From: Escherichia phage T7
Length of the DNA stretch: 40,210 nt
Reading direction: 5' to 3' (one strand)
Sequence record: LR745709
This document shows positions 24,006-40,210 of this stretch, piece by piece (position 1 is the stretch's first letter; every line of letters starts with the position of its first letter). A program made the position numbers and the translations under genes. Under the pieces are notes generated by a model. It was not told the DNA's origin. It made no database searches and worked only from the letters and a program-made list of their open reading frames with translations.

Positions 24006-24160
24006 TGCTGGGGGTGGCCTCAACGGTCGCTGCTAGTCCCGAAGAGGCGAGTGTTACTTCAACAGAAGAAACCTTAACGCCAGCACAGGAGGCCGCACGC
24101 ACCCGCGCTGCTAACAAAGCCCGAAAGGAAGCTGAGTTGGCTGCTGCCACCGCTGAGTAA
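22968..24160 (+). CDS. 10: Gene 10B, minor capsid protein by -1 ribosomal frameshift near the 10A stop
   Basis: Slippery G GTT TTC AAA (about 23986-23994) just before the 10A stop; the -1 frame stays open to TAA at 24158-24160. Confidence 0.6.
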
Positions 24161-24842: not shown

Positions 24843-27227
24843 ATGGCACTCATTAGCCAATCAATCAAGAACTTGAAGGGTGGTATCAGCCAACAGCCTG
24901 ACATCCTTCGTTATCCAGACCAAGGGTCACGCCAAGTTAACGGTTGGTCTTCGGAGACCGAGGGCCTCCAAAAGCGTCCACCTCTTGTTTTCTTAAATAC
25001 ACTTGGAGACAACGGTGCGTTAGGTCAAGCTCCGTACATCCACCTGATTAACCGAGATGAGCACGAACAGTATTACGCTGTGTTCACTGGTAGCGGAATC
25101 CGAGTGTTCGACCTTTCTGGTAACGAGAAGCAAGTTAGGTATCCTAACGGTTCCAACTACATCAAGACCGCTAATCCACGTAACGACCTGCGAATGGTTA
25201 CTGTAGCAGACTATACGTTCATCGTTAACCGTAACGTTGTTGCACAGAAGAACACAAAGTCTGTCAACTTACCGAATTACAACCCTAATCAAGACGGATT
25301 GATTAACGTTCGTGGTGGTCAGTATGGTAGGGAACTAATTGTACACATTAACGGTAAAGACGTTGCGAAGTATAAGATACCAGATGGTAGTCAACCTGAA
25401 CACGTAAACAATACGGATGCCCAATGGTTAGCTGAAGAGTTAGCCAAGCAGATGCGCACTAACTTGTCTGATTGGACTGTAAATGTAGGGCAAGGGTTCA
25501 TCCATGTGACCGCACCTAGTGGTCAACAGATTGACTCCTTCACGACTAAAGATGGCTACGCAGACCAGTTGATTAACCCTGTGACCCACTACGCTCAGTC
25601 GTTCTCTAAGCTGCCACCTAATGCTCCTAACGGCTACATGGTGAAAATCGTAGGGGACGCCTCTAAGTCTGCCGACCAGTATTACGTTCGGTATGACGCT
25701 GAGCGGAAAGTTTGGACTGAGACTTTAGGTTGGAACACTGAGGACCAAGTTCTATGGGAAACCATGCCACACGCTCTTGTGCGAGCCGCTGACGGTAATT
25801 TCGACTTCAAGTGGCTTGAGTGGTCTCCTAAGTCTTGTGGTGACGTTGACACCAACCCTTGGCCTTCTTTTGTTGGTTCAAGTATTAACGATGTGTTCTT
25901 CTTCCGTAACCGCTTAGGATTCCTTAGTGGGGAGAACATCATATTGAGTCGTACAGCCAAATACTTCAACTTCTACCCTGCGTCCATTGCGAACCTTAGT
26001 GATGACGACCCTATAGACGTAGCTGTGAGTACCAACCGAATGGCAATCCTTAAGTACGCCGTTCCGTTCTCAGAAGAGTTACTCATCTGGTCCGATGAAG
26101 CACAATTCGTCCTGACTGCCTCGGGTACTCTCACATCTAAGTCGGTTGAGTTGAACCTAACGACCCAGTTTGACGTACAGGACCGAGCGAGACCTTTTGG
26201 GATTGGGCGTAATGTCTACTTTGCTAGTCCGAGGTCCAGCTTCACGTCCATCCACAGGTACTACGCTGTGCAGGATGTCAGTTCCGTTAAGAATGCTGAG
26301 GACATTACATCACACGTTCCTAACTACATCCCTAATGGTGTGTTCAGTATTTGCGGAAGTGGTACGGAAAACTTCTGTTCGGTACTATCTCACGGGGACC
26401 CTAGTAAAATCTTCATGTACAAATTCCTGTACCTGAACGAAGAGTTAAGGCAACAGTCGTGGTCTCATTGGGACTTTGGGGAAAACGTACAGGTTCTAGC
26501 TTGTCAGAGTATCAGCTCAGATATGTATGTGATTCTTCGCAATGAGTTCAATACGTTCCTAGCTAGAATCTCTTTCACTAAGAACGCCATTGACTTACAG
26601 GGAGAACCCTATCGTGCCTTTATGGACATGAAGATTCGATACACGATTCCTAGTGGAACATACAACGATGACACATTCACTACCTCTATTCATATTCCAA
26701 CAATTTATGGTGCAAACTTCGGGAGGGGCAAAATCACTGTATTGGAGCCTGATGGTAAGATAACCGTGTTTGAGCAACCTACGGCTGGGTGGAATAGCGA
26801 CCCTTGGCTGAGACTCAGCGGTAACTTGGAGGGACGCATGGTGTACATTGGGTTCAACATTAACTTCGTATATGAGTTCTCTAAGTTCCTCATCAAGCAG
26901 ACTGCCGACGACGGGTCTACCTCCACGGAAGACATTGGGCGCTTACAGTTACGCCGAGCGTGGGTTAACTACGAGAACTCTGGTACGTTTGACATTTATG
27001 TTGAGAACCAATCGTCTAACTGGAAGTACACAATGGCTGGTGCCCGATTAGGCTCTAACACTCTGAGGGCTGGGAGACTGAACTTAGGGACCGGACAATA
27101 TCGATTCCCTGTGGTTGGTAACGCCAAGTTCAACACTGTATACATCTTGTCAGATGAGACTACCCCTCTGAACATCATTGGGTGTGGCTGGGAAGGTAAC
27201 TACTTACGGAGAAGTTCCGGTATTTAA
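24843..27227 (+). CDS. 12: Gene 12, tail tubular protein B (nozzle, 794 aa)
   Basis: ORF MALISQSIKNLKGGISQQPDILRYPDQGSRQVNGW... preceded by taaggaggctc. Confidence 0.97.
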   Translation: MALISQSIKNLKGGISQQPDILRYPDQGSRQVNGWSSETEGLQKRPPLVFLNTLGDNGALGQAPYIHLINRDEHEQYYAVFTGSGIRVFDLSGNEKQVRYPNGSNYIKTANPRNDLRMVTVADYTFIVNRNVVAQKNTKSVNLPNYNPNQDGLINVRGGQYGRELIVHINGKDVAKYKIPDGSQPEHVNNTDAQWLAEELAKQMRTNLSDWTVNVGQGFIHVTAPSGQQIDSFTTKDGYADQLINPVTHYAQSFSKLPPNAPNGYMVKIVGDASKSADQYYVRYDAERKVWTETLGWNTEDQVLWETMPHALVRAADGNFDFKWLEWSPKSCGDVDTNPWPSFVGSSINDVFFFRNRLGFLSGENIILSRTAKYFNFYPASIANLSDDDPIDVAVSTNRMAILKYAVPFSEELLIWSDEAQFVLTASGTLTSKSVELNLTTQFDVQDRARPFGIGRNVYFASPRSSFTSIHRYYAVQDVSSVKNAEDITSHVPNYIPNGVFSICGSGTENFCSVLSHGDPSKIFMYKFLYLNEELRQQSWSHWDFGENVQVLACQSISSDMYVILRNEFNTFLARISFTKNAIDLQGEPYRAFMDMKIRYTIPSGTYNDDTFTTSIHIPTIYGANFGRGKITVLEPDGKITVFEQPTAGWNSDPWLRLSGNLEGRMVYIGFNINFVYEFSKFLIKQTADDGSTSTEDIGRLQLRRAWVNYENSGTFDIYVENQSSNWKYTMAGARLGSNTLRAGRLNLGTGQYRFPVVGNAKFNTVYILSDETTPLNIIGCGWEGNYLRRSSGI

Positions 27228-33500: not shown

Positions 33501-34552
33501 TAGGGACCTTGAAGTATTCAACACAGGAACTGGCTGCTCGCTCTCCGTGGACTAAGCTACTGAACGGAACCACTAACTACCTTCTGGATGCTGCGCGTCA
33601 AGGTATGCTTGGGGATGTTATTAGTGCCACCCTAACAGGTAAGACTACCCGCTGGGAGAAAGAAGGCTTCCTTCGTGGTGCCTCCGTAACTCCTGAGCAG
33701 ATGGCTGGCATCAAGTCTCTCATCAAGGAACATATGGTACGCGGTGAGGACGGGAAGTTTACCGTTAAGGACAAGCAAGCGTTCTCTATGGACCCACGGG
33801 CTATGGACTTATGGAGACTGGCTGACAAGGTAGCTGATGAGGCAATGCTGCGTCCACATAAGGTGTCCTTACAGGATTCCCATGCGTTCGGAGCACTAGG
33901 TAAGATGGTTATGCAGTTTAAGTCTTTCACTATCAAGTCCCTTAACTCTAAGTTCCTGCGAACCTTCTATGATGGATACAAGAACAACCGAGCGATTGAC
34001 GCTGCGCTGAGCATCATCACCTCTATGGGTCTCGCTGGTGGTTTCTATGCTATGGCTGCACACGTCAAAGCATACGCTCTGCCTAAGGAGAAACGTAAGG
34101 AGTACTTGGAGCGTGCACTGGACCCAACCATGATTGCCCACGCTGCGTTATCTCGTAGTTCTCAATTGGGTGCTCCTTTGGCTATGGTTGACCTAGTTGG
34201 TGGTGTTTTAGGGTTCGAGTCCTCCAAGATGGCTCGCTCTACGATTCTACCTAAGGACACCGTGAAGGAACGTGACCCAAACAAACCGTACACCTCTAGA
34301 GAGGTAATGGGCGCTATGGGTTCAAACCTTCTGGAACAGATGCCTTCGGCTGGCTTTGTGGCTAACGTAGGGGCTACCTTAATGAATGCTGCTGGCGTGG
34401 TCAACTCACCTAATAAAGCAACCGAGCAGGACTTCATGACTGGTCTTATGAACTCCACAAAAGAGTTAGTACCGAACGACCCATTGACTCAACAGCTTGT
34501 GTTGAAGATTTATGAGGCGAACGGTGTTAACTTGAGGGAGCGTAGGAAATAA
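30596..34552 (+). CDS. 16: Gene 16, internal virion core protein with N-terminal lytic transglycosylase domain (1318 aa)
   Basis: N-terminal SLT-like motif (...AWTESRFVPTAKSKTGPLGMMQFTKATAKALG...). Largest ORF in the window. Confidence 0.97.
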   Translation: MDKYDKNVPSDYDGLFQKAADANGVSYDLLRKVAWTESRFVPTAKSKTGPLGMMQFTKATAKALGLRVTDGPDDDRLNPELAINAAAKQLAGLVGKFDGDELKAALAYNQGEGRLGNPQLEAYSKGDFASISEEGRNYMRNLLDVAKSPMAGQLETFGGITPKGKGIPAEVGLAGIGHKQKVTQELPESTSFDVKGIEQEATAKPFAKDFWETHGETLDEYNSRSTFFGFKNAAEAELSNSVAGMAFRAGRLDNGFDVFKDTITPTRWNSHIWTPEELEKIRTEVKNPAYINVVTGGSPENLDDLIKLANENFENDSRAAEAGLGAKLSAGIIGAGVDPLSYVPMVGVTGKGFKLINKALVVGAESAALNVASEGLRTSVAGGDADYAGAALGGFVFGAGMSAISDAVAAGLKRSKPEAEFDNEFIGPMMRLEARETARNANSADLSRMNTENMKFEGEHNGVPYEDLPTERGAVVLHDGSVLSASNPINPKTLKEFSEVDPEKAARGIKLAGFTEIGLKTLGSDDADIRRVAIDLVRSPTGMQSGASGKFGATASDIHERLHGTDQRTYNDLYKAMSDAMKDPEFSTGGAKMSREETRYTIYRRAALAIERPELQKALTPSERIVMDIIKRHFDTKRELMENPAIFGNTKAVSIFPESRHKGTYVPHVYDRHAKALMIQRYGAEGLQEGIARSWMNSYVSRPEVKARVDEMLKELHGVKEVTPEMVEKYAMDKAYGISHSDQFTNSSIIEENIEGLVGIENNSFLEARNLFDSDLSITMPDGQQFSVNDLRDFDMFRIMPAYDRRVNGDIAIMGSTGKTTKELKDEILALKAKAEGDGKKTGEVHALMDTVKILTGRARRNQDTVWETSLRAINDLGFFAKNAYMGAQNITEIAGMIVTGNVRALGHGIPILRDTLYKSKPVSAKELKELHASLFGKEVDQLIRPKRADIVQRLREATDTGPAVANIVGTLKYSTQELAARSPWTKLLNGTTNYLLDAARQGMLGDVISATLTGKTTRWEKEGFLRGASVTPEQMAGIKSLIKEHMVRGEDGKFTVKDKQAFSMDPRAMDLWRLADKVADEAMLRPHKVSLQDSHAFGALGKMVMQFKSFTIKSLNSKFLRTFYDGYKNNRAIDAALSIITSMGLAGGFYAMAAHVKAYALPKEKRKEYLERALDPTMIAHAALSRSSQLGAPLAMVDLVGGVLGFESSKMARSTILPKDTVKERDPNKPYTSREVMGAMGSNLLEQMPSAGFVANVGATLMNAAGVVNSPNKATEQDFMTGLMNSTKELVPNDPLTQQLVLKIYEANGVNLRERRK

Positions 34553-34572
34553 TACGACTCACTATAGGGAGA
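34550..34572 (+). promoter_or_regulatory. T7 promoter phi17 (class III); also drives the inserted trxA
   Basis: taatacgactcactatagggaga; +1 near 34567. No other promoter lies between it and trxA. Confidence 0.93.
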
Positions 34573-34624: not shown

Positions 34625-36280
34625 ATGGCTAACGTAATTAAAACCGTTTTGACTTACCAGTTAGATGGCTCCAATCGTGATTTTAATATCCCGTTTGAGT
34701 ATCTAGCCCGTAAGTTCGTAGTGGTAACTCTTATTGGTGTAGACCGAAAGGTCCTTACGATTAATACAGACTATCGCTTTGCTACACGTACTACTATCTC
34801 TCTGACAAAGGCTTGGGGTCCAGCCGATGGCTACACGACCATCGAGTTACGTCGAGTAACCTCCACTACCGACCGATTGGTTGACTTTACGGATGGTTCA
34901 ATCCTCCGCGCGTATGACCTTCACGTCGCTCAGATTCAAACGATGCACGTAGCGGAAGAGGCCCGTGACCTCACTGCGGATACTATCGGTGTCAATAACG
35001 ATGGTCACTTGGATGCTCGTGGTCGTCGAATTGTGAACCTAGCGAACGCCGTGGATGACCGCGATGCTGTTCCGTTTGGTCAACTAAAGACCATGAACCA
35101 GAACTCATGGCAAGCACGTAATGAAGCCTTACAGTTCCGTAATGAGGCTGAGACTTTCAGAAACCAAGCGGAGGGCTTTAAGAACGAGTCCAGTACCAAC
35201 GCTACGAACACAAAGCAGTGGCGCGATGAGACCAAGGGTTTCCGAGACGAAGCCAAGCGGTTCAAGAATACGGCTGGTCAATACGCTACATCTGCTGGGA
35301 ACTCTGCTTCCGCTGCGCATCAATCTGAGGTAAACGCTGAGAACTCTGCCACAGCATCCGCTAACTCTGCTCATTTGGCAGAACAGCAAGCAGACCGTGC
35401 GGAACGTGAGGCAGACAAGCTGGAAAATTACAATGGATTGGCTGGTGCAATTGATAAGGTAGATGGAACCAATGTGTACTGGAAAGGAAATATTCACGCT
35501 AACGGGCGCCTTTACATGACCACAAACGGTTTTGACTGTGGCCAGTATCAACAGTTCTTTGGTGGTGTCACTAATCGTTACTCTGTCATGGAGTGGGGAG
35601 ATGAGAACGGATGGCTGATGTATGTTCAACGTAGAGAGTGGACAACAGCGATAGGCGGTAACATCCAGTTAGTAGTAAACGGACAGATCATCACCCAAGG
35701 TGGAGCCATGACCGGTCAGCTAAAATTGCAGAATGGGCATGTTCTTCAATTAGAGTCCGCATCCGACAAGGCGCACTATATTCTATCTAAAGATGGTAAC
35801 AGGAATAACTGGTACATTGGTAGAGGGTCAGATAACAACAATGACTGTACCTTCCACTCCTATGTACATGGTACGACCTTAACACTCAAGCAGGACTATG
35901 CAGTAGTTAACAAACACTTCCACGTAGGTCAGGCCGTTGTGGCCACTGATGGTAATATTCAAGGTACTAAGTGGGGAGGTAAATGGCTGGATGCTTACCT
36001 ACGTGACAGCTTCGTTGCGAAGAGCTCTGGTTGGACTGAGGTATGGCAAGGCTCTGCTGGTGGTGGTGTTTCAGTAAGCCTCTCACAGGATGTCCGCTGG
36101 AGAACTATCTGGATTCTAGCTAATAATGGCATGTGTTCTGTTCAGATTGGAGCTGATGCTACTTACTTCATGGTGGTTATGGGTGGTTGGTTGAAGTTCA
36201 CAATTTCCAACAACGGGAGAACTTTCCGTAACGACCAAGATCGAAATACAGTACCTAAGCAAATCTTAGTTCGAAACTAA
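34625..36280 (+). CDS. 17: Gene 17, tail fibre protein (551 aa): T7-type N-terminus and shaft with a divergent C-terminal receptor-binding tip
   Basis: MANVIKTVLTYQLDGSNRDFNIPFEYLARKF... through ...GGKWLDAYLRDSFVAKS is T7 gp17. From about residue 468 the sequence (SGWTEVWQGSAGGGVSVSLSQDVRWRTIWILANNGMCSVQIGADATYFMVVMGGWLKFTISNNGRTFRNDQDRNTVPKQILVRN) departs from the T7 tip as I recall it, and the gene is 2 codons shorter. Confidence 0.93.
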   Translation: MANVIKTVLTYQLDGSNRDFNIPFEYLARKFVVVTLIGVDRKVLTINTDYRFATRTTISLTKAWGPADGYTTIELRRVTSTTDRLVDFTDGSILRAYDLHVAQIQTMHVAEEARDLTADTIGVNNDGHLDARGRRIVNLANAVDDRDAVPFGQLKTMNQNSWQARNEALQFRNEAETFRNQAEGFKNESSTNATNTKQWRDETKGFRDEAKRFKNTAGQYATSAGNSASAAHQSEVNAENSATASANSAHLAEQQADRAEREADKLENYNGLAGAIDKVDGTNVYWKGNIHANGRLYMTTNGFDCGQYQQFFGGVTNRYSVMEWGDENGWLMYVQRREWTTAIGGNIQLVVNGQIITQGGAMTGQLKLQNGHVLQLESASDKAHYILSKDGNRNNWYIGRGSDNNNDCTFHSYVHGTTLTLKQDYAVVNKHFHVGQAVVATDGNIQGTKWGGKWLDAYLRDSFVAKSSGWTEVWQGSAGGGVSVSLSQDVRWRTIWILANNGMCSVQIGADATYFMVVMGGWLKFTISNNGRTFRNDQDRNTVPKQILVRN

Positions 36281-36385
36281 CTTCGGGGCGCGCGGCGTCT
36301 GTGACCACCTGATTCTTGAGTAGCGGGGCCGAAAGGCCCCGCCAAGGCAACCGACGGAACGGCCACACGATTAAGGAGGTAACCC
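36281..36385 (+). other. Inserted GC-rich linker with GNRA-capped hairpin and strong RBS, upstream of trxA
   Basis: Perfect 8-bp stem gcggggcc-gaaa-ggccccgc (36323-36342) with no U-tract, then ttaaggaggtaaccc-ATG. About 65-70% GC versus about 48% for the phage. Not part of the wild-type 17/17.5 intergenic region. Confidence 0.8.
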
Positions 36386-36718
36386 ATGAGCGATAAAATC
36401 ATTCACCTGACCGATGACTCTTTTGATACCGACGTGCTGAAAGCTGATGGTGCAATTCTGGTTGATTTCTGGGCAGAGTGGTGCGGCCCTTGCAAAATGA
36501 TCGCTCCAATCCTGGACGAAATTGCGGACGAATATCAGGGTAAGCTGACTGTGGCCAAACTGAACATTGACCAGAACCCTGGCACCGCACCGAAATACGG
36601 TATCCGTGGCATCCCAACTCTGCTGCTGTTCAAAAACGGTGAAGTGGCAGCAACCAAAGTAGGCGCTCTGTCTAAAGGCCAACTGAAAGAGTTCCTGGAC
36701 GCCAACCTGGCTTAATGA
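36386..36718 (+). CDS. trxA: Thioredoxin 1 (109 aa), identical in protein to E. coli TrxA, ending in tandem stops TAA TGA; inserted cargo gene
   Basis: [109 protein letters not shown], with the WCGPC active site. Sits between gene 17 and gene 17.5, where T7 has no gene. Confidence 0.97.
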
Positions 36719-36776
36719 TTGGTAAATCACAAGGAAAGACGTGTAGTCCACGGATGGACTCTCAAGGAGGTACAAG

Positions 36777-36980
36777 GTGCTATCATTAGACTTTAACAAC
36801 GAATTGATTAAGGCTGCTCCAATTGTTGGGACGGGTGTAGCAGATGTTAGTGCTCGACTGTTCTTTGGGTTAAGCCTTAACGAATGGTTCTACGTTGCTG
36901 CTATCGCCTACACAGTGGTTCAGATTGGTGCCAAGGTAGTCGATAAGATGATTGACTGGAAGAAAGCCAATAAGGAGTGA
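36777..36980 (+). CDS. 17.5: Gene 17.5, class II holin (67 aa), GTG start
   Basis: MLSLDFNNELIKAAPIVGTGVADVSARLFFGLSLNEWFYVAAIAYTVVQIGAKVVDKMIDWKKANKE, preceded by caaggaggtacaag. Confidence 0.9.
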   Translation: MLSLDFNNELIKAAPIVGTGVADVSARLFFGLSLNEWFYVAAIAYTVVQIGAKVVDKMIDWKKANKE

Positions 36981-36985
36981 TATGT

Positions 36986-37255
36986 ATGGAAAAGGATAAG
37001 AGCCTTATTACATTCTTAGAGATGTTGGACACTGCGATGGCTCAGCGTATGCTTGCGGACCTTTCGGACCATGAGCGTCGCTCTCCGCAACTCTATAATG
37101 CTATTAACAAACTGTTAGACCGCCACAAGTTCCAGATTGGTAAGTTGCAGCCGGATGTTCACATCTTAGGTGGCCTTGCTGGTGCTCTTGAAGAGTACAA
37201 AGAGAAAGTCGGTGATAACGGTCTTACGGATGATGATATTTACACATTACAGTGA
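36986..37255 (+). CDS. 18: Gene 18, terminase small subunit (89 aa)
   Basis: ATG at 36986 after taaggagtgatatgt. MEKDKSLITFLEMLDTAMAQRMLADLSDHERRSPQLYNAINKLLDRHKF... Confidence 0.88.
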   Translation: MEKDKSLITFLEMLDTAMAQRMLADLSDHERRSPQLYNAINKLLDRHKFQIGKLQPDVHILGGLAGALEEYKEKVGDNGLTDDDIYTLQ

Positions 37256-37257
37256 TA

Positions 37258-37300
37258 TACTCAAGGCCACTACAGATAGTGGTCTTTATGGATGTCATTG
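37258..37300 (+). promoter_or_regulatory. RNase III processing hairpin R18.5
   Basis: tatactcaaggccactacagatagtggtctttatgga, the same motif family as other T7 RNase III sites. Confidence 0.6.
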
Positions 37301-37349
37301 TCTATACGAGATGCTCCTACGTGAAATCTGAAAGTTAACGGGAGGCATT

Positions 37350-37781
37350 ATGCTAGAATTTTTACGTAAGCTAATCCCTTGGGTTCTCGCTGGGATGCTA
37401 TTCGGGTTAGGATGGCATCTAGGGTCAGACTCAATGGACGCTAAATGGAAACAGGAGGTACACAATGAGTACGTTAAGAGAGTTGAGGCTGCGAAGAGCA
37501 CTCAAAGAGCAATCGATGCGGTATCTGCTAAGTATCAAGAAGACCTTGCCGCGCTGGAAGGGAGCACTGATAGGATTATTTCTGATTTGCGTAGCGACAA
37601 TAAGCGGTTGCGCGTCAGAGTCAAAACTACCGGAACCTCCGATGGTCAGTGTGGATTCGAGCCTGATGGTCGAGCCGAACTTGACGACCGAGATGCTAAA
37701 CGTATTCTCGCAGTGACCCAGAAGGGTGACGCATGGATTCGTGCGTTACAGGATACTATTCGTGAACTGCAACGTAAGTAG
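37350..37781 (+). CDS. 18.5: Gene 18.5, Rz-like i-spanin (143 aa)
   Basis: N-terminal transmembrane segment (LIPWVLAGMLFGLGWHLG) then coiled-coil-like periplasmic domain. Contains the embedded gene 18.7. Confidence 0.88.
   Translation: MLEFLRKLIPWVLAGMLFGLGWHLGSDSMDAKWKQEVHNEYVKRVEAAKSTQRAIDAVSAKYQEDLAALEGSTDRIISDLRSDNKRLRVRVKTTGTSDGQCGFEPDGRAELDDRDAKRILAVTQKGDAWIRALQDTIRELQRK
37465..37716 (+). CDS. 18.7: Gene 18.7, Rz1-like o-spanin lipoprotein embedded in gene 18.5 (83 aa)
   Basis: +1-frame ORF wholly inside gene 18.5, with a lipobox-like LICVATISGC and Pro-rich mature part. Confidence 0.78.
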   Translation: MSTLRELRLRRALKEQSMRYLLSIKKTLPRWKGALIGLFLICVATISGCASESKLPEPPMVSVDSSLMVEPNLTTEMLNVFSQ

Positions 37782-37802
37782 GAAATCAAGTAAGGAGGCA
37801 AT

Positions 37803-39563
37803 GTGTCTACTCAATCCAATCGTAATGCGCTCGTAGTGGCGCAACTGAAAGGAGACTTCGTGGCGTTCCTATTCGTCTTATGGAAGGCGCTAAACCTACC
37901 GGTGCCCACTAAGTGTCAGATTGACATGGCTAAGGTGCTGGCGAATGGAGACAACAAGAAGTTCATCTTACAGGCTTTCCGTGGTATCGGTAAGTCGTTC
38001 ATCACATGTGCGTTCGTTGTGTGGTCCTTATGGAGAGACCCTCAGTTGAAGATACTTATCGTATCAGCCTCTAAGGAGCGTGCAGACGCTAACTCCATCT
38101 TTATTAAGAACATCATTGACCTGCTGCCATTCCTATCTGAGTTAAAGCCAAGACCCGGACAGCGTGACTCGGTAATCAGCTTTGATGTAGGCCCAGCCAA
38201 TCCTGACCACTCTCCTAGTGTGAAATCAGTAGGTATCACTGGTCAGTTAACTGGTAGCCGTGCTGACATTATCATTGCGGATGACGTTGAGATTCCGTCT
38301 AACAGCGCAACTATGGGTGCCCGTGAGAAGCTATGGACTCTGGTTCAGGAGTTCGCTGCGTTACTTAAACCGCTGCCTTCCTCTCGCGTTATCTACCTTG
38401 GTACACCTCAGACAGAGATGACTCTCTATAAGGAACTTGAGGATAACCGTGGGTACACAACCATTATCTGGCCTGCTCTGTACCCAAGGACACGTGAAGA
38501 GAACCTCTATTACTCACAGCGTCTTGCTCCTATGTTACGCGCTGAGTACGATGAGAACCCTGAGGCACTTGCTGGGACTCCAACAGACCCAGTGCGCTTT
38601 GACCGTGATGACCTGCGCGAGCGTGAGTTGGAATACGGTAAGGCTGGCTTTACGCTACAGTTCATGCTTAACCCTAACCTTAGTGATGCCGAGAAGTACC
38701 CGCTGAGGCTTCGTGACGCTATCGTAGCGGCCTTAGACTTAGAGAAGGCCCCAATGCATTACCAGTGGCTTCCGAACCGTCAGAACATCATTGAGGACCT
38801 TCCTAACGTTGGCCTTAAGGGTGATGACCTGCATACGTACCACGATTGTTCCAACAACTCAGGTCAGTACCAACAGAAGATTCTGGTCATTGACCCTAGT
38901 GGTCGCGGTAAGGACGAAACAGGTTACGCTGTGCTGTACACACTGAACGGTTACATCTACCTTATGGAAGCTGGAGGTTTCCGTGATGGCTACTCCGATA
39001 AGACCCTTGAGTTACTCGCTAAGAAGGCAAAGCAATGGGGAGTCCAGACGGTTGTCTACGAGAGTAACTTCGGTGACGGTATGTTCGGTAAGGTATTCAG
39101 TCCTATCCTTCTTAAACACCACAACTGTGCGATGGAAGAGATTCGTGCCCGTGGTATGAAAGAGATGCGTATTTGCGATACCCTTGAGCCAGTCATGCAG
39201 ACTCACCGCCTTGTAATTCGTGATGAGGTCATTAGGGCCGACTACCAGTCCGCTCGTGACGTAGACGGTAAGCATGACGTTAAGTACTCGTTGTTCTACC
39301 AGATGACCCGTATCACTCGTGAGAAAGGCGCTCTGGCTCATGATGACCGATTGGATGCCCTTGCGTTAGGCATTGAGTATCTCCGTGAGTCCATGCAGTT
39401 GGATTCCGTTAAGGTCGAGGGTGAAGTACTTGCTGACTTCCTTGAGGAACACATGATGCGTCCTACGGTTGCTGCTACGCATATCATTGAGATGTCTGTG
39501 GGAGGAGTTGATGTGTACTCTGAGGACGATGAGGGTTACGGTACGTCTTTCATTGAGTGGTGA
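37803..39563 (+). CDS. 19: Gene 19, terminase large subunit (DNA maturase B, 586 aa), GTG start
   Basis: Walker-A-like FRGIGKSF near the N-terminus, C-terminal nuclease-type region. Preceded by taaggaggcaat. Confidence 0.96.
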
Positions 39564-39644
39564 TTTATGCATTAGGACTGCATAGGGATGCACTATAGAC
39601 CACGGATGGTCAGTTCTTTAAGTTACTGAAAAGACACGATAAAT

Positions 39645-39667
39645 TAATACGACTCACTATAGGGAGA
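39645..39667 (+). promoter_or_regulatory. T7 promoter phiOR
   Basis: taatacgactcactatagggaga; +1 near 39662. Confidence 0.93.
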
Positions 39668-39821
39668 GGAGGGACGAAAGGTTACTATATAGATACTGAA
39701 TGAATACTTATAGAGTGCATAAAGTATGCATAATGGTGTACCTAGAGTGACCTCTAAGAATGGTGATTATATTGTATTAGTATCACCTTAACTTAAGGAC
39801 CAACATAAAGGGAGGAGACTC

Positions 39822-39971
39822 ATGTTCCGCTTATTGTTGAACCTACTGCGGCATAGAGTCACCTACCGATTTCTTGTGGTACTTTGTGCTGCCCTTGGGT
39901 ACGCATCTCTTACTGGAGACCTCAGTTCACTGGAGTCTGTCGTTTGCTCTATACTCACTTGTAGCGATTAG
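39822..39971 (+). CDS. 19.5: Gene 19.5, small hydrophobic protein (49 aa)
   Basis: ATG at 39822 after aaagggaggagactc. MFRLLLNLLRHRVTYRFLVVLCAALGYASLTGDLSSLESVVCSILTCSD. Confidence 0.7.
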   Translation: MFRLLLNLLRHRVTYRFLVVLCAALGYASLTGDLSSLESVVCSILTCSD

Positions 39972-40039
39972 GGTCTTCCTGACCGACTGATGGCTCACCG
40001 AGGGATTCAGCGGTATGATTGCATCACACCACTTCATCC

Positions 40040-40210
40040 CTATAGAGTCAAGTCCTAAGGTATACCCATAAAGAGCCTCTAATGGTCTATCCTAAGGTCT
40101 ATACCTAAAGATAGGCCATCCTATCAGTGTCACCTAAAGAGGGTCTTAGAGAGGGCCTATGGAGTTCCTATAGGGTCCTTTAAAATATACCATAAAAATC
40201 TGAGTGACTA
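40040..40210. repeat. Right-end short repeat array abutting the (absent) right terminal repeat
   Basis: Imperfect cctaa(a/g)g-type repeats (cctaaggtatacc, cctaaggtctatacctaaagatagg, cacctaaagaggg). Window ends ...aaaatctgagtgacta, where the right terminal repeat would start. Confidence 0.75.

Follow-up and report, generated by a model that had tools for sequence, protein, structure and literature searches.

The 40,210-nucleotide stretch of Escherichia phage T7 DNA analysed in this study (sequence record LR745709; hereafter the window) is almost certainly a laboratory-engineered T7 genome that matches the mutant phPM of Grigonyte et al. 2020 (Viruses 12:193, PMC7077284, PRJEB35760), with its trxA gene acting as a positive-selection marker; the identity of the deposit itself is something we infer from this match. 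The trxA gene of the window belongs to an already known, published laboratory construct and is not a natural discovery. It lies within a block of replaced DNA, and the structure of this block, the origin of its pieces, the recoding of trxA and the agreement with the published design can all be read directly from the alignments given below.

The trxA reading frame (36386-36718, + strand) is intact. It runs from ATG to TAA at 36386-36715, comprising 109 codons for a protein of 109 amino acids, and a second stop codon, TGA, follows at 36716-36718. The WCGPC redox-active motif occupies residues 32-36 of the translation, and residues 5-105 match Pfam PF00085 (Thioredoxin) with 119.3 bits against a curated cut-off of 23.5. 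The protein of the window is identical at 109/109 positions to chain I of PDB entry 6n7w (molecule name TrxA/Thioredoxin), which we take to be a T7 replisome complex, and likewise at 109/109 positions to TrxA of an E. coli chromosome (WP_001280776). By every sequence criterion the predicted product is a thioredoxin. A Shine-Dalgarno motif, AAGGAGG, is located at 36373-36379, 6 nt upstream of the ATG, and the reference T7 genome V01146 has no gene at this site. The preliminary description of this DNA, made from its letters alone, had recognised a complete 109-residue WCGPC reading frame identical to E. coli TrxA, with a strong ribosome-binding site of its own and tandem stop codons, at a place that is geneless in wild-type T7, and the findings above bear it out on each of these points.

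Although the protein is that of E. coli, the DNA is not. In each of 5426 complete E. coli genomes, trxA shares 86.1% of its bases with the trxA of the window. On comparison with the E. coli allele of NZ_CP042896, 46 differences were found, distributed over 45 of the 110 codons; third positions account for 43 of the 46, and none of the differences changes an amino acid. The synonymous swaps go in both directions (GAC<>GAT, ATC<>ATT) and include one serine swap of AGT>TCT. A Salmonella-type natural allele, which encodes the same protein, was considered as a source and is ruled out, its identity to the trxA of the window being just 275/327 (84%). The natural E. coli and Salmonella alleles are 93% alike (305/327), and at 39 sites the trxA of the window is unlike both. 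A natural auxiliary gene would be expected to show a diverged protein and a natural codon ancestry; here there are 0 amino-acid changes and 46 synonymous ones. Base for base, the same trxA DNA is found in the engineered records LR745706, LR745707 and LR745708. Judged by this codon pattern, the trxA of the window is to be regarded as a synthetic, recoded gene.

Amongst 50,697 phage records, the only ones with an identical TrxA were these three T7 constructs and another three that derive from Salmonella, while the natural phage thioredoxins of the same collection reach at most about 53% identity to E. coli TrxA. The three Salmonella-derived records consist of two Salmonella whole-genome shotgun contigs and a 5.5-kb unannotated entry named 'Salmonella phage S.Kent 1-2-1'. 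They look like bacterial sequence filed with phages rather than examples of a phage-borne trxA.

The remainder of the window is T7. When aligned to V01146 with BLAST, window positions 1-36022 correspond to T7 1-36021, from which they depart by one extra base and four substitutions, and window positions 36718-40210 match T7 36285-39777 exactly. The sole structural change with respect to V01146 is that 695 bp (window 36023-36717) stand in place of 263 bp of T7 (36022-36284). Besides the addition of trxA, this exchange takes in the last 87 codons of T7 gene 17, together with the greater part of its stop codon. Between the new gene 17 stop and the native intergenic region lie 438 bp (36281-36718), and the gap between that stop and the trxA ATG is 105 bp, of which 80 bp are of Bordetella phage BPP-1 origin. 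A single clean insertion of about 438 bp had been predicted for an alignment with T7; the figure is right for 36281-36718, however, the change as a whole is a replacement and not a clean insertion, since the swap extends into the 3' end of gene 17 and a BPP-1 fragment from a diversity-generating retroelement (DGR) has been included. The prediction that the native 58-bp region ahead of gene 17.5 would be intact was confirmed, since 36719-36776 is identical to T7 36286-36343. Gene 17.5 itself (36777-36980, + strand), which encodes the type II holin (Pfam Phage_holin_2_2), is an unchanged reading frame, 100% identical to that of T7.

Outside the block, only two bases distinguish the window from LR745710, the wild-type record of the same authors. 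Three differences from V01146 are common to the window and LR745710, namely an extra A at 1896 (gene 0.6 region), a C>T change at 24158 near the end of gene 10B, and an A>G change at 34976 (gp17 T118A); these reflect either the background of the strain or corrections of the sequence published in 1983. T118 is retained in LR745708, as in V01146, which suggests a heterogeneous stock. The window ends at the equivalent of T7 39777 and the right 160-bp terminal direct repeat is absent, as it also is from LR745710 (39,778 bp). According to the paper, the genome was assembled from short reads with SPAdes (PMC7077284), and the missing repeat is a collapse of the short-read assembly, not a real deletion.

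On its left side the block begins within the tail fibre gene. Gene 17 of the window (34625-36280, + strand) is a chimeric reading frame of 551 amino acids with a match to Pfam Phage_T7_tail, made up of residues 1-466 of T7 gp17 and residues 485-569 of gp17 from the Yersinia phage Yep-phi, and is the fusion given for phPM in Table S4. Identity to T7 stops at 36022, after gp17 codon 466. The 90-nt left homology arm HR1 of plasmid pAG32, taken from the supplement, aligns at 35933-36022 (+ strand), allowing for the noise of a machine-read PDF. From 36023 to 36280 (+ strand) follow the 85 codons of the Yep-phi tail fibre tip and a TAA stop; this segment is 99.6% identical to HQ333270/NC_023715 and starts at nucleotide 1453 (codon 485) of Yep-phi g17. 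Relative to Yep-phi, the stop has been changed from TGA to TAA (36279), and the tip carries one non-synonymous change, G>A at 36257, which replaces E by K at residue 545 of the chimeric gp17, seven residues from the C-terminus. The K variant was not found in the tips of deposited phages, where the best match is 84/85. This change could have been designed, could be a synthesis error or could be adaptive.

A further substitution lies in the T7-derived part of the gene, A>C at 34922 (+ strand; N100H), and is unlisted in the paper, including its Table S6. N100H is present neither in LR745710 nor in LR745707 and LR745708, nor in any of the 148 phage records that match this stretch. This substitution may have been adaptive in the sole functional chimera, or it may be a late variant. 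Taken together, N100H and the E>K change of the tip could be adaptive and could be what makes this chimera the only functional one.

The 80 bp that follow the tail fibre stop (36281-36360) are identical to Bordetella phage BPP-1 at 79/80 positions. They contain positions 97-134 of the variable region VR1 of mtd, the stop codon of that gene, the intergenic region between mtd and avd, and 7 nt from the beginning of avd. The VR1 part, which corresponds to the IMH (36281-36318, + strand), is identical at 38/38 positions; in it, (GC)14 spans 36284-36297 and is followed by the 21-bp element (36298-36318). Just downstream, at 36323-36342 (+ strand), is the DGR hairpin/cruciform with an 8-bp GC stem and a GAAA loop; it reads GCGGGGCC-GAAA-GGCCCCGC, is identical to that of BPP-1, keeps its native spacing from the IMH and appears as a stem-loop in both minimum-free-energy and centroid folds. 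The mtd stop codon TAG (36321-36323) shares the first base of the hairpin. The last part (36343-36360, + strand) comprises the intergenic region and the beginning of avd, in which the start codon ATG has been changed to ACG (36354-36356), the sole mismatch in the 80 bp. An Rfam scan of 35900-36900 returned nothing at E<=1.

The elements of the IMH, and the role of a hairpin with a GC stem of 8-10 bp and a GRNA loop just downstream of it, have been described by Guo et al. 2011 (PMC3240598), and both the IMH and the hairpin of a BPP-1-type DGR target are found in the window. When the 3.7-kb BPP-1 DGR locus was searched against the window with BLAST, no template repeat (TR), avd or Brt was found, and only the 80-bp target end was recovered; the match of the TR itself is to the same IMH region. 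With no cognate TR, Avd or Brt, the window can be said to contain a DGR recipient site at the most, but no DGR. A start at VR position 97 combined with a silenced avd start codon suggests design and not a cloning scar, and we consider it quite possible, though slightly less likely than not, that the segment is a deliberate, unpublished design feature. If it is deliberate, the infective T7 receptor-binding tip would be a ready recipient for DGR mutagenic homing, given Avd, Brt and a matching TR in trans, and targeted hypermutation of T7 host range would become possible. The consulted portions of Grigonyte et al. 2020 (PMC7077284) make no mention of the IMH/hairpin segment or of DGR use for this construct. 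A follow-up from collaborating laboratories (PMC8234382) employs trxA selection for T7/K1F chimeras with no mention of DGR, Mtd or Yep-phi, and this silence makes it uninformative on the reason for the IMH cassette.

Between the BPP-1 segment and trxA lies a synthetic spacer with the ribosome-binding site TTAAGGAGGTAACCC (36361-36385, + strand), which includes the Shine-Dalgarno motif mentioned above; no match for spacer and ribosome-binding site was found in a plasmid collection. The site at 36371-36385 reads TTAAGGAGGTAACCC, whereas BioBrick B0034, the element named in Table S2, is AAAGAGGAGAAA, and the B0034 sequence was not found within 36000-36800. In this respect the window departs from the description of phPM. 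However, LR745707 and LR745708 are likewise without B0034, so the wording of Table S2 looks loose and the difference does not point to another phage. The unlisted ribosome-binding site, the unlisted substitutions and the BPP-1 segment are items that the description leaves out, and none of them speaks against engineering.

The assignment to phPM is based on the agreement of several parts of the window with the published account. The study compares CRISPR with marker-based selection for T7 engineering, and the records LR745706-08 and LR745710 belong to it (PMC7077284); none of these four is the genome of the window. Its tail fibre mutants were obtained by recombination with plasmids bearing a chimeric g17 together with trxA, followed by delta-trxA selection, and Table S4 defines phPM as T7 gp17 1-466 :: Yep-phi gp17 485-569. 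Exactly these fusion boundaries are found in the window. As in phPM, the full trxA follows the tail fibre insert and is enclosed between HR1 (35933-36022) and the right homology arm HR2 (36719-36808, + strand), to which the HR2 of the supplement aligns and whose first 58 bp (36719-36776) are the native gene 17/17.5 intergenic region including the 17.5 ribosome-binding site. The printed primer(s) for the trxA/HR2 junction, ACGCCAACCTGGCTTAATGATTGGTAAATCAC..., align at 36699-36741. Additionally, Table S6 lists just one single-nucleotide variant for phPM, 26041 A>G (I>M), and the window carries this private variant at 26042 (+ strand) in gene 12, where it has G against A at T7 26041 and codon 400 reads ATG for ATA (gp12 I400M).

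The bacteriophage T7 DNA polymerase gp5 binds E. coli thioredoxin in a 1:1 complex as its processivity factor, and T7 cannot grow without trxA. Deprived of this subunit of its polymerase, wild-type T7 is left without progeny on delta-trxA cells; on E. coli BW25113 delta-trxA the paper reports a reduction of about 10^10-fold, with no progeny (PMC7077284). On the present reading, the cassette of pAG32, consisting of the Yep-phi tail fibre tip, the BPP-1 DGR target end, a synthetic ribosome-binding site and the recoded E. coli trxA, was recombined into T7 via the two 90-bp homology arms, and recombinants with trxA in cis supply thioredoxin themselves and form plaques on the delta-trxA host. That the phage-encoded TrxA serves as the processivity factor of gp5 during infection is taken from T7 biochemistry and from the plating data of the paper. 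For phAG_1 to phAG_7, which are the mutants of Table S5, the paper further reports that trxA recombinants made up 100% of the screened plaques, and it states that the T7/Yep-phi fusion was the only mutant of the study able to infect E. coli (PMC7077284). A selectable marker for growth on trxA-deficient hosts was one of the two purposes offered in the preliminary description, and it is the one that holds, as the window matches a published phage that was selected on BW25113 delta-trxA.

Expression of the marker would depend on the transcription of gene 17. The nearest T7 promoter upstream of trxA is the class III promoter phi17 (34550-34572, + strand), which shows the exact 23-nt consensus and is annotated as phi17 in V01146; a scan found no T7 promoter between phi17 and trxA, the insert included, and no sigma-70-like promoter was found between 36128 and trxA. 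The only sigma-70-like match nearby, at 36098-36127, was rejected as a trxA promoter, being internal to gene 17 and no stronger than the matches that shuffled sequence gives. No terminator-like site was found in a scan of the + strand from phi17 to gene 17.5. The BPP-1 hairpin was also considered as a transcription terminator and discarded, since it is without a T-run and was not called by the scan. From these scans, T7 RNA polymerase is likely to transcribe trxA along with gene 17, starting at phi17 and, by read-through, at promoters further upstream, and trxA is likely to be translated from its own AAGGAGG site. This is consistent with the earlier expectation that the gene lacks a promoter of its own and is transcribed late from phi17. 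In LR745708, a terminator-like hairpin with a T-run (…ctagcccgctcttatcgggcggctaggggtttttt…) is seen between the Mtd fusion and trxA (at about 2600-2680 of the segment examined); it is absent from the window and from LR745707. If this hairpin terminates T7 RNA polymerase, trxA expression would be lower in that phage.

Other explanations for a trxA gene in a T7 genome were weighed against engineering for selection. A T7-like phage might have captured trxA from its host in nature and kept it as an auxiliary gene that frees the phage from host thioredoxin. Thioredoxins are indeed encoded by natural phages, with 272 phage records carrying homologues of <60% identity, and the gene of the window is placed at an intergenic site with its neighbouring genes intact. 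However, a protein that has remained 100% identical to that of the host is difficult to reconcile with synonymous changes in 45/110 codons, and the DNA is farther from the E. coli and Salmonella genes than those two are from each other, with the 39 sites that resemble neither. Its flanks come from two unrelated phages, Yep-phi and BPP-1, joined at boundaries, arms and primers that are printed in a methods paper, and the identical trxA DNA recurs in three other engineered T7 records. Natural capture is effectively refuted, and the probability that we would leave to it is vanishingly small. We assign an equally minute probability to an assembly artefact, in which reads from host E. coli trxA would have been mis-joined into the phage contig. 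The short-read SPAdes assembly and the collapsed right terminal repeat could be cited in its favour, yet the junctions of the block are precise and match designed primers, the same arrangement was assembled independently in LR745707 and LR745708, and a trxA that is just 86% identical to any E. coli genome cannot be host contamination.

The possibility that trxA was added for host range accepts engineering and differs in its purpose. According to it, the gene would allow replication in hosts such as Yersinia, whose thioredoxin fails T7 gp5, and would act together with the Yersinia-phage tip. Since the same cassette exchanges the receptor-binding tip for that of a Yersinia pestis phage, its pairing with a guaranteed replication factor is conceivable. 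Against this, the purpose stated in the paper is selection on delta-trxA E. coli, and trxA is present in every mutant, including the g17 deletion (LR745706) and the non-infective Mtd fusions; the parts of it consulted describe plating on E. coli strains only, with no other species (PMC7077284). Nothing was found in support of the corresponding suggestion in the preliminary description, that of hosts with a thioredoxin unsuited to gp5, and we consider it very improbable, if marginally less so than capture or artefact. Selection on delta-trxA E. coli is the purpose that we retain for the gene.

For natural biology, the finding carries little weight: that a phage should bring along a host factor essential to it would be remarkable as a product of evolution, and here the gene was placed by people, as a device for selection that has been published. 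Its value is rather in curation. Engineered records can be recognised by a host-identical protein on recoded DNA, by patchwork flanks and by designed junctions, and they would otherwise be counted as gene capture. What is new with respect to the paper, namely the DGR target cassette, the two extra tail fibre substitutions and the non-B0034 ribosome-binding site, is minor and concerns a synthetic construct. The DGR target cassette behind a functional tail fibre tip, along with the two substitutions, could nevertheless interest those who engineer phage host range.

Amongst known systems, the closest is phPM, with which the window shares the fusion boundaries, the homology arms, the junction primers, the placement of trxA, the variant 26041 A>G, the LR745710 background and the missing right repeat. 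The published description gives B0034 and one variant, whereas the window has a different Shine-Dalgarno region, the extra N100H, the E>K change in the tip and the unmentioned 80-bp BPP-1 segment. LR745707 and LR745708, in which T7 gp17 is fused to BPP-1 Mtd, have the same trxA DNA in the same position ahead of the native 17.5 leader, and upstream of it lie the IMH and hairpin of BPP-1 with the sequence seen in the window. They differ from the window in carrying an Mtd domain instead of the Yep-phi tip and in having another spacer and ribosome-binding site (TTTAAGGAGGTCAA), and their BPP-1 segment ends before the avd start, while that of the window extends 7 nt into avd with ATG>ACG. The preliminary description named a reference genome already containing this reading frame at this position as a ground for refutation; wild-type T7 is without it, but these two engineered records do contain it, annotated as trxA. 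LR745706 has the identical recoded trxA DNA, but replacing gene 17.

In a wider sense, selection of T7 recombinants with trxA or cmk markers goes back to the host-factor screen of Qimron et al. 2006 and to Yosef et al. 2017, both cited in PMC7077284, and by this cited work trxA markers in T7 were established practice before the construct was made. The principle is the same, in that the phage is given a host gene which is essential to T7 and dispensable for E. coli, and the knockout host provides the selection; the window represents one specific use of it, combined with a tail fibre swap. Similarly, the order gene, IMH, hairpin seen in the window is that of the heterologous DGR target of Guo et al. 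2011 (PLoS Genet 7:e1002414). Position 97, where the BPP-1 piece begins, is also where the 3' TR segment (TR 97-134) of the donors engineered in that study has its boundary. Unlike that target, the one in the window is without a cognate template repeat, avd and brt. Finally, the natural phage thioredoxins, for example those of Burkholderia, Acinetobacter and Streptomyces phages, share with the product of the window the thioredoxin fold, a CGPC-type motif and a location in a phage genome. However, they come from unrelated phages and their identity to E. coli TrxA does not exceed about 53%, whereas the gene of the window is a synthetic copy encoding the host protein.
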